The notes under the pieces: model-generated
Told to the model about the DNA's origin: nothing
Databases searched by the model: none
What the model saw: the letters and a program-made list of their open reading frames with translations, nothing else
Made by a program: the position numbers and the translations under genes
Part shown: positions 31,258 through 42,496 of the stretch, one piece after another
Position numbering within the stretch: the stretch's first letter is position 1
Layout of the letters: each line of letters begins with the position of its first letter
Origin: Escherichia coli
GTDB taxonomy: Bacteria > Pseudomonadota > Gammaproteobacteria > Enterobacterales > Enterobacteriaceae
DNA length: 64,000 nt
Direction: 5' to 3' (one strand)
Assembly (NCBI RefSeq): GCF_024223415.1
Contig: NZ_CP100500.1

Positions 31258-31278
31258 CGTATAACCAAACGTATAACT
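31258..31278 (+). repeat. Two direct CGTATAAC(C/T) motifs, candidate integrase arm-type sites at the distal end
   Basis: CGTATAACC at 31258 and CGTATAACT at 31270. The same 9-mer occurs four times next to int at 42236-42285. Confidence 0.55.
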
Positions 31279-31447
31279 AAAATCATTTGCTGAAAAAGTG
31301 TACAATTTAAAGGCGAGTTTTCCCAGAGGTTTATTAAACTACGAAAATTTCGTAGTTTGTGAATATATTCCGGCCTGCTGGTTAACAGTCCTCAGATGTG
31401 AGGGATGTAGCCAGCGCAATTTTGCGCTTTGCTTTAATCTCAGTCAG

Positions 31448-31729
31448 TTATCGCCGTAACCGCTCCGGCTTCTTCCAGTGGTACGTAATTTTTTCTTTCT
31501 CCCGATACAGTTCAACGCGGCGATTGTAGGCCAGCATTTCCAGAACGCGGATCCGTATGTCGCGCATATCCACGCCGTTAAGCTCAATACCGTCACGGCG
31601 CATCACCTCAGCAACCACACGCGCATAATTTTCGGCGGTCACGCTGTCCGGCTGCGTGGCCTGTTCGTCAGCCTGCTGGCTGATTCCGGCAACGCGACGG
31701 ATTAATCGCAGTAGTTCGGCTTCTGTCAT
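31448..31729 (-). CDS. Hypothetical 93-aa protein flanking cos-1
   Basis: The ORF has a plausible composition, is the last gene before the island end, and abuts the cosQ side of cos-1. I do not recognise the family. Confidence 0.55.
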   Translation of the reverse strand: MTEAELLRLIRRVAGISQQADEQATQPDSVTAENYARVVAEVMRRDGIELNGVDMRDIRIRVLEMLAYNRRVELYREKEKITYHWKKPERLRR

Positions 31730-31763
31730 TGTGCCCCCATCGTTCTGATAGTCTGGTGTCGTC

Positions 31764-31989
31764 GGGTCCTTCCTGGAATTATGGCCCGTTACGGGGCGTC
31801 GACCTCGCGGTTTTTCGCTATTTATGAGATTTTTTGAGGGGGTGGTTGTTGTTTAATTGTTTGGTATATCTAATTGATAAGTAAGGTAAAAATAAAATAA
31901 ATACAACAACCTTACGGTGTATTTTGATGTCATTAATGTGAAAAAATTCAATGATATCAAATGGTTTTGTAAAAACATATGGTTGTTGT
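31764..31989 (+). other. cos-1: lambda-type cohesive-end site (cosQ GGGTCCT, cosN, cosB with GGTTGTTGT repeats), reading rightward
   Basis: gggtccttcctggaattatggcccgttacg|GGGCGTCGACCT|cgcggtttttcgctatttatgag aligns with the lambda junction GGGTCCTTTCCGGTGATCCGACAGGTTACG|GGGCGGCGACCT|CGCGGGTTTTCGCTATTTATGAA. The 12-nt end equivalent is at 31794-31805. Confidence 0.8.
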
Positions 31990-32163
31990 ATCGCGTATTT
32001 GATGGCGTAACAGAAAGTGATTTTTAACTTTACCGCTCTGTAACTACGGATTATTCCATGCTGGCACGGAGAACGGCTACGGCATGACGCCACCCAGCCT
32101 ATACAGAACAGTAAAGCCGATAAATTGTTAATCACGCGCAGCAATGCGTGTGATTTTTGCACA

Positions 32164-32359
32164 CTTCCGGTTAACGGGTACGATGTCCGGTTTGTTTGTA
32201 CATTTTTTGCACATGTCCGGTTCGCAGAAAGCATGTTTTTATATTTTTCATATAGTTAACTTGCAGAGAAACCGGACATGGATCCCGAAAAATTTTCATA
32301 AATAGTGAAAACGCGCGAGGTCGACGCCCCGTAACGGGTCCACATGCCGGAAAGGACCC
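32164..32359 (-). other. cos-2: second lambda-type cos site in inverted orientation (cosB with ATGTCCGGTT repeats), reading leftward
   Basis: The minus strand reads gggtcctttccggcatgtggacccgttacg|GGGCGTCGACCT|cgcgcgttttcactatttatgaaaattttc. The 12-nt end equivalent is at 32329-32318. Confidence 0.8.
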
Positions 32360-32361
32360 GC

Positions 32362-32390: not shown

Positions 32391-32804
32391 TCAGATGGTT
32401 TTCAGTATGCGATCGATGTTGCCGTCATCGACCGGGTTTCTGCCATCGTATGCCATGCCAGCTGATACGGCTTTCGGGCTGTGCATGTCCATAAAGTTTT
32501 CAAAGGCTGAAGTAAGCTGTGGTGCAACCTTCGGGCGTTCCTGCTCTATGGTCATGCTAAGGATGCTTTTAGCCGTACCAACATCGATACAAGGCACGTT
32601 AGCCATTGCACGTAACAGCGGCTGGTAGTCGTCAGATTCATGAAGCGCCATAATCGCATCAGCGCGCTGCTTGTCCTGTTCTTCCAGTTTGTTTAGTCGG
32701 TGTATGGCCTCGTAGGTTGATAAACCTCTGTCAGCCATTGCCCGCGCTTCGGCTTTAAATTTACTCGCCAGCGGTAGCGTCATGATACTTTCATTCGTTG
32801 CCAT
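32391..32804 (-). CDS. Hypothetical 137-aa protein, last gene of the capsid operon (possible scaffold or size-determination factor)
   Basis: The ORF is tightly spaced after the decoration gene and has an acidic, helical-looking sequence. I do not recognise the family. Confidence 0.6.
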   Translation of the reverse strand: MATNESIMTLPLASKFKAEARAMADRGLSTYEAIHRLNKLEEQDKQRADAIMALHESDDYQPLLRAMANVPCIDVGTAKSILSMTIEQERPKVAPQLTSAFENFMDMHSPKAVSAGMAYDGRNPVDDGNIDRILKTI

Positions 32805-32816
32805 CGTTCCCCCTGC

Positions 32817-33152
32817 TTATCGGGCCAGCGGCTGAACGGATACGCCGGAACCCGCAAAGGCGGCGCATTTTTTCGCATCGGTGTCGACGCTGTCAGGCCA
32901 GTTAACGGCGGCAATATTGAATATCCCCGTTTTGTAACACTGTGCTGATTTCTGCTTTGACGTGTCCACGGGGTGCGAAGTCAGATAAACAGCTTTGCCA
33001 GATTCCTGACCATCCCACGCCTTAAACTCGCCATTGTCTGCCAGCATCAGCGGGGTAAATTCCTGAATAACGCCAGCATCAGCGGCAAAATGTACCAGCG
33101 TCGTGGATACCTGCTGGCTGCCTGCAAATAACTCAATATATGGAGCGTCCAT
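32817..33152 (-). CDS. Head decoration protein, lambda gpD family
   Basis: TPLMLADNGEFKAWDG and YKTGIFNIAAVNWP...KKCAAFAGSGVSV align with lambda gpD TPLMLDTSSRKLVAWDG and YKSGTFRYEDVLWP...KKRTAFAGTAISI. Confidence 0.85.
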   Translation of the reverse strand: MDAPYIELFAGSQQVSTTLVHFAADAGVIQEFTPLMLADNGEFKAWDGQESGKAVYLTSHPVDTSKQKSAQCYKTGIFNIAAVNWPDSVDTDAKKCAAFAGSGVSVQPLAR

Positions 33153-33163
33153 AGAATCCCCCG

Positions 33164-34219
33164 TTAAGCAATTTTGACGGTAACAAATTTGCGAATATCT
33201 GCCGGTACCGGCTGCGGTGCGCTGTGCGTCTGCACGTACTCAATCGCCGGATCGCCGTCCTCAATCCAGTTTTTCGGGTAGTACATGTTTTGCGTTGCGC
33301 CCGTTCTTACCGCTTCCTGATCCATAATCGCACCATATGCCACAAGCCCTTTATTGTTGGTGTTACCCAGGACAAGCAAATCAGGCTCAAGGAAATATTT
33401 TTCGGTGCCGTCGCTGTCAGTGTATTTGCCGGAATAGACGATAAGGGCCAGATCACCAAGATAGCCTTTAAAGCTCACCACTTCGCCCAGGTTTTTACAG
33501 GCCAGCTCGGCGGCGGATTCTGAGCCACGGTAAAGATCGTACAGTTCACGGAATTTTTTAAAGCTGCGTAATGTGCGCCATGCCTCACCGCCCATAATCA
33601 TGACGTTGGCGGGGCAACCTGCCTGATCAGCATAAAGCTCGATGTCATAGATTGGGTCGTGCATGTCTTTATCCTGCTGGGACCATTTTTTACCACTGGC
33701 CTGCTGTATGATGCAGTTTTCCGGTATTTTCCAGTCGATTTCATAGCGTTCTATGCCTTCGCCCTCAATGATGTTTTTTCCGGTCGTTACCGCATTCACC
33801 GCCAGCCATTCCACGCGCGCCTTAATGGCGTTTATCTGGCGGCGCATGTTGCCAGTAATCAGGCGCATACGGCGGTAAGTTGGATCGTTAAGCTGTGCCG
33901 GATCTTCTCCAGCCATGCGCATGATGGTCTTTGTTGGATCGATTTCGTGCTTTGGCTTCATGTAGCCTGGTTTAATCGTGCTGGTTTCGTACCCTTTATC
34001 GCGCTGGACCTGACTACCCACCATAGGAGAACAGAACGCTGACATCGTAACCTCTTCAATGTCCAGGGTGTCCAGCATGATGTTTTGGGTGTTGAAGGTC
34101 GCCACGTTCGGGAAAAACAGCGTGGTAAACAGCGGACTAAATTTAAATTCCGAAATATCCCCGCGATTCAGGTACGCGAAAAGCTGGTTAGTTGTAAGTG
34201 CCGTTGCTTTGCCTGTCAT
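33164..34219 (-). CDS. Major capsid protein, lambda gpE family
   Basis: FKFSPLFTTLFF, PGYMKPKHEIDP, DPTYRRMRLI, IVYSGKY and YPKNWIEDGDPAIEY align with lambda gpE FKFDPLFLRLFF, PGYVKPKHEVNP, DPAYRRRRII, VVYSGQY and YPKNWVTTGDPAREF. Confidence 0.9.
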   Translation of the reverse strand: MTGKATALTTNQLFAYLNRGDISEFKFSPLFTTLFFPNVATFNTQNIMLDTLDIEEVTMSAFCSPMVGSQVQRDKGYETSTIKPGYMKPKHEIDPTKTIMRMAGEDPAQLNDPTYRRMRLITGNMRRQINAIKARVEWLAVNAVTTGKNIIEGEGIERYEIDWKIPENCIIQQASGKKWSQQDKDMHDPIYDIELYADQAGCPANVMIMGGEAWRTLRSFKKFRELYDLYRGSESAAELACKNLGEVVSFKGYLGDLALIVYSGKYTDSDGTEKYFLEPDLLVLGNTNNKGLVAYGAIMDQEAVRTGATQNMYYPKNWIEDGDPAIEYVQTHSAPQPVPADIRKFVTVKIA

Positions 34220-36096: not shown

Positions 36097-36344
36097 GCTG
36101 TATGCTCTCCGGTTTTAACGTTGATGGTTGTCACCTGTTCCGCTCCGGCAATCTCCCGTTCTGTCAGCGTGGCAAAATTTGCCGCTACCGTTGTCATGAA
36201 TGCGCTTATCAGTTCGGGATGTGCTTTCGCGTATCCTTCTCCCGCGTGGCGGTCTATCGTTCTGATTGCCACCTTTAAGGCGTGCTCTGTCATGTCTAAC
36301 GCTTTATATTTTGGCGCTGTCTTATCTCTGGTTTTTCTGTTCAT
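36093..36344 (-). CDS. Hypothetical protein (83 aa from MNRKTRDK)
   Basis: The track ORF is 36093..36374. Its first 10 codons are translated iteron repeats, so the start at 36344 is preferred. It overlaps the ssb start. Confidence 0.55.
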   Translation of the reverse strand: MNRKTRDKTAPKYKALDMTEHALKVAIRTIDRHAGEGYAKAHPELISAFMTTVAANFATLTEREIAGAEQVTTINVKTGEHTA

Positions 36345-36555
36345 TCCCCACCACTCCCCACTTTTGCTCCCCACTTTTTAAATTCCCCACTTGCTCCCCA
36401 CCTCGTTTTTTGAGTGAATCTAATGCTTTGTTTTTCATTGCGTTTTTTACTCCCCACTTTTTTGGATGTATACAGGTGGGAAAGTGGGGAATTATGTTTC
36501 AATTTTGTTAAATTCCCCACTCTCCCCACTTTTACTACCCACTTTTTACAGTGGG
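36345..36555. repeat. Iteron-type replication origin: about 13 copies of YCCCCAC(T) flanking an AT-rich spacer
   Basis: Direct copies are tccccac, ctccccact (x4), ttccccac (x2), tctccccact and tacccact. Inverted copies are gtggga, gtgggga and gtgggta. The AT-rich core is at 36411-36448. The region lies immediately 3' of the helicase gene. Confidence 0.7.
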
Positions 36556-37961
36556 TAAACATCATCCCCATCGACACAAATCACGCCGTCTTTTTCCAGC
36601 TTGGACAGCCAGCGCCGGAAGTGCTTCATCTCATACCCCAGCTTTTTCATATCGTCGCGGAGAAGGGCGATAGTGCATGGCTCTTTGTGTGCCGTCCGCG
36701 TTCTGATGCACTGCCATAGCGCGGTATGGTTTTCCGTCTTGTTGCCTGCCTCCTCGATGCGCTCCAGTTCAACGGGAGAGCGCGGCTTATCAACCACCAC
36801 CAGCGACGTGATTAACTCCCCGTCAGCGTCGGTAAAAAGCTCCACCACGCGTAAATCGTAGGCGGCCTCTTTCAGTTCCTCCGCGTCCTTCATTTTGGTG
36901 CAGGATATAACCAGGGCTTTACTGTCTGCACCTTCTCGGCGAATACGGTATTCAGCGTCCAGAGATGCACGAAATGCACTGGAACCACGCGCCCCCTTTG
37001 TTTCATCCTTGCCGGAATGGTGGACCACCAGCACCGTGGCCCCTGTGCGTCGTTTCAGGTCGTCACATCCACGGATAAACGCCCCCATATCCCGCGCGTC
37101 ATTTTCATCATTACCGCCAAAGCAACGCGCCAGCGTATCCAGAATAATCATGCGTACCGGTTTACCCGTTTCCCGTTCAACCTGGCGGGAAGCGATAACC
37201 ATTTCATCAACATCAAGCGGGGCTGCCGGAAAAATCGGGCGGTTTACCAGGTACAGATTTTTCACCCGTTCATCATTAACGATTTCCCATGCCTTGATAC
37301 GACGGGGGACACCAATGCCACCTTCACCGACAACATACATCACCGAACCATGCGCCACCCTGCGGCCTCCCCAGTGGCGCCCCGTGGCAACATGACACGC
37401 CCAGGAACACGCAAGGAATGATTTATAGGAACCGCTCGCACCGTATGTGCTGCACAATGAATTAGCCGGAATCACGCCCTTAACGACATAATCAAGCTGT
37501 GTGTCGTATCCTGCAGATCCAATGCTCATGGGTAGCGTGGTTTTTCGCTGGCTGTATTGCTCATCAGTAAGTATTTCCCCGCGCTCTGCCTGTTCGCGGA
37601 TCCGTTGCAGGTAGTCGCGCCATTCCTCCCGCTTCTGGCTGTGCATTCCCTCGGGGTAATAACTCGCATCCCGTATACCTGCCGCCGCCAGTTTTTGCCC
37701 GATGGCATTAATATTTGATGGCTTGATGTGGCCTGCCTTGTACAGCCGGACACAATAGCGACCATCGTCGATAATTTTCAGGTCTGCCAGTTCGTCAAGC
37801 TGACTGTCTCCCAGCCATACTGGCGGGACGTTATCGCCAGCAAGTCGCCCGTCCTGTTCCTGCCATTGTTTTGCGTGCGCCCAGGCATCACTACCTGCAA
37901 AAATAATGACTTCGGTCATTTTGTTGTGTGGCTGTTTTTTTAAGTTCGGTGCCAGTTTCAT
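36546..37961 (-). CDS. Replication initiator helicase (RecA-fold, RepA/DnaB-like AAA_25 type) with a C-terminal winged-helix domain
   Basis: This is a 471-aa ORF with a Walker A-like GASGSYKS, Walker B MIILDTLARCFGG and the motif VLVVHHSGKD. The start is coupled to the upstream gene (ATGA). Confidence 0.8.
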   Translation of the reverse strand: MKLAPNLKKQPHNKMTEVIIFAGSDAWAHAKQWQEQDGRLAGDNVPPVWLGDSQLDELADLKIIDDGRYCVRLYKAGHIKPSNINAIGQKLAAAGIRDASYYPEGMHSQKREEWRDYLQRIREQAERGEILTDEQYSQRKTTLPMSIGSAGYDTQLDYVVKGVIPANSLCSTYGASGSYKSFLACSWACHVATGRHWGGRRVAHGSVMYVVGEGGIGVPRRIKAWEIVNDERVKNLYLVNRPIFPAAPLDVDEMVIASRQVERETGKPVRMIILDTLARCFGGNDENDARDMGAFIRGCDDLKRRTGATVLVVHHSGKDETKGARGSSAFRASLDAEYRIRREGADSKALVISCTKMKDAEELKEAAYDLRVVELFTDADGELITSLVVVDKPRSPVELERIEEAGNKTENHTALWQCIRTRTAHKEPCTIALLRDDMKKLGYEMKHFRRWLSKLEKDGVICVDGDDVYPL

Positions 37962-42235: not shown

Positions 42236-42285
42236 AGTTATACGGCTTTAGTTATACGTCAGCCCGTATAACTAAACGTATAACT
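42236..42285. repeat. Four CGTATAACT motifs (two inverted, two direct), candidate integrase arm-type sites
   Basis: AGTTATACG at 42236 and 42250; CGTATAACT at 42265 and 42277. They lie directly upstream of int. Confidence 0.6.
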
Positions 42286-42385
42286 AAAAAATCCGGCTGA
42301 TAGCTTATAAATCCGGTGATGTTCGGTGACTAAAAAACATAAAAAAACCCGCCAATCAAGTGATTAGCGGGTTATCCCTGTCTTA

Positions 42386-42419: not shown

Positions 42420-42496
42420 TGGTCGGCACGAGAGGATTTGAACCTCCGACCCCCGACACCCCATGACGGTGCGCTACCAGGCTGCGCTACGTGCCG
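42420..42496 (-). tRNA. proL: tRNA-Pro (anticodon GGG)
   Basis: The minus strand reads CGGCACGTAGCGCAGCCTGGTAGCGCACCGTCATGGGGTGTCGGGGGTCGGAGGTTCAAATCCTCTCGTGCCGACCA. It is 77 nt with cloverleaf-compatible arms and an encoded CCA. Confidence 0.92.

Follow-up and report, generated by a model that had tools for sequence, protein, structure and literature searches.

The window, a stretch of 64,000 nucleotides of an Escherichia coli chromosome (NZ_CP100500.1) that is 99.9% identical to strain 135, carries an island of ~11 kb between yejO and tRNA-Pro (42420-42496). From the integrase side, the island encodes an integrase beside tRNA-Pro, a helix-turn-helix regulator and an Icd/primase-like protein of 595 aa. 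The middle part encodes a DUF4222 protein, a RepA-type helicase, SSB, PerC and a ProQ/FinO protein, and the late end comprises genes for capsid (lambda gpE-like) and decoration (gpD-like) proteins and for a protein of 137 aa, two cos sites and a 93-aa open reading frame (ORF). No match to the small terminase subunit (TerS) was found in the window, and the island is without a terminase gene. With this lack of terminase genes and with a late region syntenic with that of EcCICFT073, the island is, by synteny, a phage-inducible chromosomal island (PICI) of the EcCICFT073 family, in a variant that lacks Rpp. Here we focus on one of its two cos sites, cos-2, beside which three copies of the 10-mer ATGTCCGGTT are clustered; these are the only perfect copies in the window.

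Base pairs at cos-2 are numbered on the minus strand, with base 1 (window position 32329) at the start of the cohesive end GGGCGTCGACCT. The two sites, both with a lambda-like cosQ and cosN, face each other and consist of the following features:

32318-32329, minus strand: cosN of cos-2, a 12-nt cohesive end GGGCGTCGACCT of the lambda type with a G-to-T change at position 6, colinear with the cosN of PhiR12_1, EDL933 and other prophages
32288-32360, minus strand: cosQ-cosN arm of cos-2, a 73-nt inverted repeat whose partner arm (31763-31835) is 84% complementary
32270-32279, minus strand: R3-like element ATGTCCGGTT, bp 51-60 from the start of the cohesive end, forward
32223-32269, minus strand: AT-rich I1-like spacer, bp 61-107, 70% A+T versus 52-54% in the flanks
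32213-32222, plus strand: R2-like element ATGTCCGGTT, bp 108-117, inverted relative to R3
32183-32192, plus strand: R1-like element ATGTCCGGTT, bp 138-147, in the R2 orientation; the match to phage DNA stops immediately past it
31794-31805, plus strand: cosN of cos-1, GGGCGTCGACCT, facing cos-2
31844-31989, plus strand: cosB of cos-1, with GGTTGTTGT at 31844-31852 (bp 51-59), inverted at 31903-31911 (bp 110-118) and forward at 31981-31989 (bp 188-196)

An earlier sequence-only reading of this locus had placed the repeats at +50 (forward) and at +108 and +138 (inverted) from the cos-2 nick, with an AT-rich segment from +60 to +107, and the elements listed above confirm both the positions and the base composition. 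The cosN of cos-2 comes after a cosQ-like sequence and is followed by ...CGCGCGTTTTCACTATTTATGAAAATTTT..., which is almost the lambda sequence. R3 and R2 are the arms, 47 nt apart, of a perfect inverted repeat of 11 nt. Triads of non-overlapping 10-mers within 120 bp were found at four loci in the window versus none in 100 block shuffles. Outside the island, the window has a single further strong 10-mer triad, at 640-810 (CCAGATAAGAC / GTCTTATCTGG, with GCCGGATAAGGCGTTTACGCCGCATCCGGCA nearby), which resembles ordinary palindromic units of the REP (repetitive extragenic palindromic) or BIME (bacterial interspersed mosaic element) type. The I1-like spacer, which is kept across the phages and islands whose cos sites were aligned, includes a two-mismatch match to WATCAANNNNTTR, a sequence resembling the consensus for integration host factor (IHF), at bp 72-84 (32246-32258). 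This consensus match agrees in strand and place with the best matches in lambda (74-86), in CFT073 phage 4 and in cos-1, where the IHF-like core, also a match to the consensus, lies at bp 74-86. The core in cos-2 is suggestive of an IHF site and is best treated as a candidate.

When cos-2 was used as a query against 50,697 phage genomes, ~95 lambda-like phages matched it at cosN only, and five, PhiR12_1, PhiR12_2, PhiR12_2_star, PhiR12_4 and PhiR12_5, matched it at 91% from cosN to the third repeat. The triad of PhiR12_1 is located between Rz and Nu1, that is, in the phage's own cos, and reads ATGTCCGGTT, AACCGGACAT and AACCGGACAT at the same distances as in cos-2; a literature search on PhiR12 returned no relevant paper. 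The cosB-2 sequence is present in 1184 of 5426 complete E. coli genomes, and the prophage triads that we examined (EDL933, E2348/69, M16807, WR3-3 and STEC307) all lie directly upstream of a TerS gene. Hence, the repeats do occur in phage cosB, as the sequence-only reading required, and its proposal to look for them next to cosN in prophages was borne out in many E. coli prophages. The TerS proteins of EDL933, E2348/69, M16807 and WR3-3, four of the five, are identical (WP_000235436.1). STEC307 has another cosN and another TerL, yet carries the same triad and the same N-terminal TerS domain, which we refer to as type 2.

A pattern scan of IMG/VR yielded at least 120 contigs with the triad, 80 of which were included in a census. 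In all 80, the spacers measure exactly 47 nt (R3-R2) and 20 nt (R2-R1). The triad is followed by a type-2 TerS N-domain (82-98% identity) in 64 of these contigs, and the other 16 are islands of the EcCICFT073 family, so that no contig of the census has the triad in any other context. An exact-triad scan of one genome per species gave no match, which, with a single genome for each species, does not show absence. Across 11 aligned cos sites, the block CCATGTCCGGTTTCTCT at R3 is unchanged in every site, and the distance of R3 from the start of the cohesive end is constant in these 11 sites as well as in the 80 viral contigs. The cosB region as a whole is 84-100% conserved throughout the alignment, to a similar degree inside and outside the repeats.

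The repeats are paired with one form of the TerS DNA-binding domain. The phages whose cos sites match cos-1 and cos-2 form two classes, type 1 and type 2, respectively, with TerS proteins that both belong to the PF07471 Phage_Nu1 family. Between the classes, TerS residues 1-65 are 30-33% identical, whereas the remainder of TerS is 87-94% identical and TerL 96-98% identical. In the phage collection, type-2 N-domains at >95% identity were found only in the five PhiR12 records, the same five that carry the triad. In phages, the N-domain that accompanies the triad is always of type 2, even though the 12-mer at the cohesive-end position takes at least six different forms; several IMG/VR prophages, like STEC307, have very different cohesive-end sequences and have kept both. 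Because cosN and TerL vary while the triad and the type-2 N-domain persist, the repeats travel with the DNA-binding domain of TerS rather than with cosN or TerL. Conversely, GGTTGTTGT pairs with the type-1, N15-like N-domain, whose nearest phage relative is N15 gp1 (65% identity), and cos-1 is colinear with prophage cos sites upstream of type-1 TerS (strains 2014C-3599 and CFSAN061770). Given the low identity of the two N-domains, the two repeat families are probably bound by different proteins, rather than by one protein, which would have undermined the sequence-only reading. The type-2 N-domain is ~25% identical to that of lambda Nu1. Comparison with solved structures gave no meaningful match to type-2 TerS; its winged-helix nature is therefore deduced only from family membership. 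On these comparisons, ATGTCCGGTT and type-2 TerS would constitute a new cosB/TerS specificity pair beside those of lambda, 21 and N15.

In our view, the ATGTCCGGTT repeats are likely to represent R3, R2 and R1 of a lambda-type cosB for the TerS of the widespread PhiR12/EDL933-type prophages, captured by an island that would be packageable by two helper classes. The comparisons thus favor the dual helper or terminase specificity put forward by the sequence-only reading. The same data bear on whether the repeats might instead be operators at which an island regulator controls a local promoter, for example that of the 93-aa ORF or of a small RNA. Inverted and direct repeats in an intergenic region, with a terminator-like hairpin nearby on the plus strand, would suit operators. 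However, no sigma-70-like promoter was found between the cosN sites, the hairpin is a relic of the rpp terminator (see below), and the same sequence serves as noncoding cosB in phages. Moreover, the 64 viral contigs have an identical triad ahead of terS, at a distance from cosN that does not vary and with no island genes nearby, and the triad co-varies with the TerS N-domain even where cosN differs. Operators, an alternative already named by the sequence-only reading, are accordingly scarcely credible.

The layout of cos-2 resembles that of the lambda cosB. There, R3 is located at ~bp 50-65 and R2, inverted, at ~107-120, with an AT-rich site of the IHF type, for which cos-2 has a candidate, at ~72-86 and a third element beyond (PMC9026076). 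Lambda TerS contacts bp 55-63, and R3 of N15 has been mapped to bp 48-60 by linker scanning (PMC9026076). As in lambda, the triad of the phages lies directly upstream of a Nu1-family TerS gene. In sequence, the two differ, with elements of the CGTTTCC type in lambda and ATGTCCGGTT in cos-2. N15 resembles cos-1 and not cos-2: GGTTGTTGT is identical to N15 bp 50-58, inside the mapped R3, but the N15 cosB has R3 only, whereas cos-1 has three copies and an IHF-like site. For lambda and phage 21, specificity reportedly resides, according to work of the Feiss laboratory that is also cited in PMC9026076, in the TerS N-domain and cosB, with TerL, cosN and cosQ being interchangeable. The type-1 and type-2 phages follow this pattern, with the difference that one satellite would serve both specificities via facing cos sites.

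The sequence-only reading had further held that cos-1 and cos-2 share cosQ and cosN, carry unrelated R elements at identical distances and are not a simple duplication. The first and last of these points stand: only the 73-nt cosQ-cosN arm is common to the two sites, as an inverted repeat, and beyond it the repeat families are ATGTCCGGTT and GGTTGTTGT. The distances agree approximately for R3 (bp 51-60 versus 51-59) and R2 (108-117 versus 110-118) but not for R1 (138-147 versus 188-196), which is also in the opposite orientation. In both cosN of the island, the cohesive end carries the same G-to-T change at position 6, by which a SalI site arises. The majority of phages and islands have GGGCGGCGACCT, and T at this position is also present in both arms of island L008 and in prophage L040 (relatives are designated by our locus numbers). 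The presence of the same change in both arms suggests gene conversion between them.

Four arrangements of the cos modules were found among the relatives:

Architecture A (CFT073, L011, L012): Rpp-type cos and rpp on the side of the 137-aa gene, ATGTCCGGTT on the side of the 93-aa ORF
Architecture B (L007, L008): Rpp-type cos and rpp on the 137-aa side, GGTTGTTGT on the 93-aa ORF side
Architecture C (window, L010, L009): ATGTCCGGTT on the 137-aa side, GGTTGTTGT on the 93-aa ORF side
Architecture D (L019 and four IMG/VR islands): GGTTGTTGT on the 137-aa side, ATGTCCGGTT on the 93-aa ORF side

Architecture D is architecture C with the segment between the arms flipped. Thus, the cosQ-cosN arms bound a segment that is seen inverted in L019 and the four IMG/VR islands and is known in both orientations. 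That the flip proceeds by terminase cutting at both cosN followed by re-annealing of the cohesive ends, instead of by homologous recombination, appears quite unlikely.

EcCICFT073 has two functional cos sites, of which cos1 is needed for transfer by lambda and phi80 and is recognised by a complex of RppA with TerS; cos2 is not a target of Rpp, and its deletion leaves lambda and phi80 transfer unimpaired and raises lambda-mediated transfer, according to the two original papers (Fillol-Salom et al. 2018, PMC6092414; 2019, PMC6739421). The authors identify no phage cosB in either site, and the phages that they compared did not include the class matched here. In our literature search, cos2 was mentioned only in these two papers, and Murialdo and Feiss are silent on a second cos. 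Thus, of the two sites, known since 2018, only the Rpp-dependent cos1 had a known role. In the CFT073 sequence, the site by the 137-aa gene is of the Rpp type and is followed by rppA at bp 102, and the site by the 93-aa ORF is the one that has the ATGTCCGGTT triad, with a spacer past R1 that is the same as in the window island. From the position of rpp, we infer that the ATGTCCGGTT site corresponds to the published cos2 and the Rpp-type site to cos1. Since cos2 is dispensable for transfer by lambda and phi80, it would fit a site for another terminase. EcCICFT073 and the window island have in common PerC, capsid, decoration, the 137-aa gene, two cos sites in succession and the 93-aa ORF, with inverted cos sharing cosQ and cosN. 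They differ in that EcCICFT073 has the triad on the side of the 93-aa ORF and the Rpp-dependent cos1 with rppA at the other site, whereas in the window rpp is deleted, the triad module occupies the cos1/rpp position and the other site has a GGTTGTTGT cosB. CFT073 phage 4 (L013, 39745-39940), the published natural helper of EcCICFT073, has a cosB that matches neither island cos, with repeats of its own (GTCCGACATGAAAGTGTCCGA...CATGTCGGGCC) upstream of a lambda/21-like Nu1.

In the Rpp-type cos, one R3-like element is present, and rpp begins at ~bp 102 (Murialdo and Feiss 2022, PMC9026076). This type of cos is found in L007, L008, L011 and L012 and agrees with cos-2 in its cosQ-cosN and in its place within the island. 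However, it has only the R3-like element (…GTGACACCACCACCAC…), no I1, R2 or R1, and rpp at ~bp 102, features that cos-2 does not share. The full rpp gene, whose product redirects the helper TerS to the island cosB, is present in CFT073 and in L007, where the product matches RppC (PDB 6hlk, E = 3e-31), and is absent from the window island. What remains of it lies beyond R1:

32099-32182, minus strand: island-specific spacer of 84 bp, containing CTTCCGGTT and not found in phages
32131-32157, plus strand: relic of the rpp terminator hairpin, inside the island-specific spacer
32033-32098, minus strand: rpp relic, the last 22 codons (Rpp residues 123-144), matched by RppA in tblastn at 73% identity (E = 9e-5)

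The relic is also supported by alignment with rpp-bearing relatives, and in CFT073, L011 and L012 the same spacer is present between the cosB of cos2 and the stop codon of the convergent rpp. These findings bear on a degenerate fourth copy, CTTCCGGTT at 32164-32172 (bp 158-166), which the sequence-only reading had placed at +158 and grouped with the cosB repeats. The copy is there, but it lies outside the phage cosB, in the island-specific spacer next to the relic terminator. Likewise, TTTTTGCACA, said to precede the last two full copies, precedes the one at 32213 but not that at 32183; its other occurrence is before the degenerate copy at 32164. Together with the adjoining repeat copy, it makes up a 19-nt direct repeat (32154-32172 and 32204-32222, 89% identity). 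We rejected the degenerate copy and TTTTTGCACA as additional R elements, as they are found in no phage copy and are part of the island spacer and relic rpp terminator. Two ORFs, of 138 aa (31818-32234, minus strand) and 53 aa (32144-32305, plus strand), were dismissed as spurious; both are unannotated in RefSeq and overlap sequence that is noncoding as cosB in phages.

Comparison of the islands with phages revealed three independent phage-to-island breakpoints, each of which retains R3-I1-R2-R1. The first lies right after R1 (window and CFT073). The second is in L009, where cosB and nine terS codons are joined to rpp at the microhomology GTTGCCAGG; here, a 69-aa ORF (NZ_CP027437.1, 3345-3554) fuses the first nine phage terS codons to the 3' half of rpp. 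The third is at terS codon 24 in islands of the L030 type, which carry the triad and 24 terS codons. These islands (L030, L037, L045 and L069, from IMG/VR) form a sub-family with a single cos, the variant cohesive end GGGCGGGAGCGG, the triad and the 24-codon terS fragment, and the same variant is present in prophages L036, L071 and L082. Island L037 and its co-resident prophage L071 have in common the rare cosN variant and an identical stretch of 60 nt from cosN to R3.

Such captures raise the possibility that cos-2 is a non-functional scar, left when recombination with a co-resident lambdoid prophage brought in cosB and destroyed rpp, with the repeats conserved because the event is recent. 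The reduction of rpp to a 22-codon relic would fit such a history, as would the useless terS fragments of L009 and the L030-type islands, the similar conservation inside and outside the repeats and the rarity of the window-like architecture (13 of 5426 genomes, at a cassette coverage of 80% or more). However, three independent captures with different breakpoints all retained the complete R3-I1-R2-R1, and in the commonest island form the phage match ends exactly after R1, as in a trimmed minimal unit. Furthermore, the model element EcCICFT073 has the triad as well, and in 64 genomes the triad occurs in the island-type form, with a spacer of its own. Finally, with neither Rpp nor a usable cos, an island would be unable to move; nevertheless, both flip states are maintained across several lineages. 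We consequently judge a scar unlikely and retain the reading of cos-2 as a captured cosB.

Several observations weigh against a functional cosB captured for a second helper class. First, conservation of the whole region cannot cleanly separate purifying selection on the repeats from recent transfer. Second, R1 of cos-2 lies 30 bp from R2 and points the same way as R2, whereas in lambda the distance is 46 bp and R1 points the same way as R3, and the overlapping inverted half-site that follows R1 in the phage (ATGACCGGTT) is lacking in the island. Third, both cosN of the window island carry the G-to-T change at cohesive-end position 6, which may affect nicking. Fourth, apart from the island, the near-identical genome of strain 135 contains no match to either cosB or to the cosQ-cosN arm, so that the search for the triad in prophages, successful elsewhere, failed here; with no resident prophage carrying either cosB, helpers would therefore need to come by infection. 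Fifth, the equation of the ATGTCCGGTT site with the published cos2 is drawn from the position of rpp. In general, the case for TerS binding and for packaging from cos-2 is comparative.

In the mechanism that we favor, the winged-helix N-domain of a type-2 Nu1-family TerS would bind R3 and the inverted R2, brought together by an IHF-type bend in the AT-rich spacer. TerL would thereby be placed on the cosN of cos-2, nick it and package the island concatemer leftward, along the minus strand of the window. A type-1 TerS helper would act likewise from cos-1, rightward. The shared cosQ-cosN would suit both phage classes because their TerL proteins are nearly identical. The cosB modules were probably captured from helper phages by recombination, and the cassette between the inverted arms can flip. 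An inverted layout would likely be of benefit in two ways. Recombination between the arms flips the segment and does not delete it, and premature termination would be avoided because termination at cosQ, in lambda, depends on orientation. The two facing cos are somewhat more likely than not to constitute a 'helper-range cassette' that is modular and can invert. Each half would be a cosB taken from a different class of helper phage, the two terminase specificities would package an island without Rpp in opposite directions, and cos2 of EcCICFT073 would be a dedicated site for terminases of the EDL933/PhiR12 type.

On replicating concatemers, a helper-identical cos suffices for packaging in lambda biology, as in cosmids. 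This argues against cos-2 being mainly a decoy that titrates or mis-positions the TerS-TerL of the helper and so replaces the lost interference by Rpp. The two roles are not mutually exclusive, and we found no decoy-specific sequence feature. Cutting at the two facing cosN could release a fragment of ~0.5 kb, and Rpp-type islands are described as uniting interference and packaging in one function (PMC6739421). The increase in lambda-mediated transfer upon deletion of EcCICFT073 cos2 implies that an extra cos can cost packaging (PMC6092414). On balance, we hold a predominant decoy function to be very improbable, and packaging from cos-2 by type-2 helpers remains the preferred explanation.

If the captured-cosB reading is correct, cos2 gains a concrete role, as a base-for-base copy of the cosB of a terminase class present in ~1/5 of complete E. 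coli genomes, including O157:H7 prophages. EcCICFT073 would then have two parallel piracy strategies, redirecting helpers of the lambda, phi80 and 21 types through Rpp and using direct mimicry with those of type 2, and members without Rpp, such as the window island, would depend wholly on two mimic cos sites. The pairing predicts which prophages mobilise these islands and, hence, which strains can exchange them. The breakpoints document repeated capture of helper packaging signals, a simple route by which satellites could change their helper range.

PICIs with two cos, lambda-type cosB and cos mimicry by satellites are already known. In SaPIbov5 and SaPIbov4, the satellite carries the helper's own cos and is packaged by the unmodified helper terminase (as cited in PMC6092414), and the HE-PICI 11capE has 258 bp at 90% identity in common with the cos of its helper (PMC10111431). 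These elements have one helper specificity, whereas the window island has two helper-type cosB modules in one invertible cassette. Relative to the literature searched, four findings appear to be new: that the cosB of cos2 belongs to a defined and very common TerS class, that some islands have two mimic cos and no Rpp, where the capture breakpoints lie, and that the cassette occurs in flipped states.

The genes that flank the two cos sites in the window island are as follows:

33164-34219, minus strand: major capsid protein (gpE-like), an island head gene upstream of cos-2; gene order as in EcCICFT073
32817-33152, minus strand: decoration protein (gpD-like), an island head gene upstream of cos-2
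32391-32804, minus strand: 137-aa protein resembling the C-terminus of head maturation protease, annotated as 'hypothetical' or 'head-tail connector'
31448-31729, minus strand: 93-aa ORF (phrog_1561), which flanks cos-1 and adjoins the second cos in all relatives

Head maturation protease profiles align with the 137-aa protein over their last ~70 residues (phrog_53, positions 494-566). The lambda Nu3 scaffold stands in the same relation to gpC, so that the island might code for a scaffold protein besides those for capsid and decoration, but for no portal or protease. Iteron-like repeats, AAAAGTGGGGA / ATTCCCCAC, are present in several copies on both strands at 36343-36513, just downstream of the helicase gene (36546-37961, minus strand); this cluster is probably the replication origin of the island. 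In addition, CGTATAAC(T/C)AA repeats are located at both island ends, as two direct copies at the yejO end (31258-31281) and as two inverted and two direct copies at the integrase/tRNA-Pro end (42243-42288), and are candidate arm-type binding sites for integrase or excisionase.

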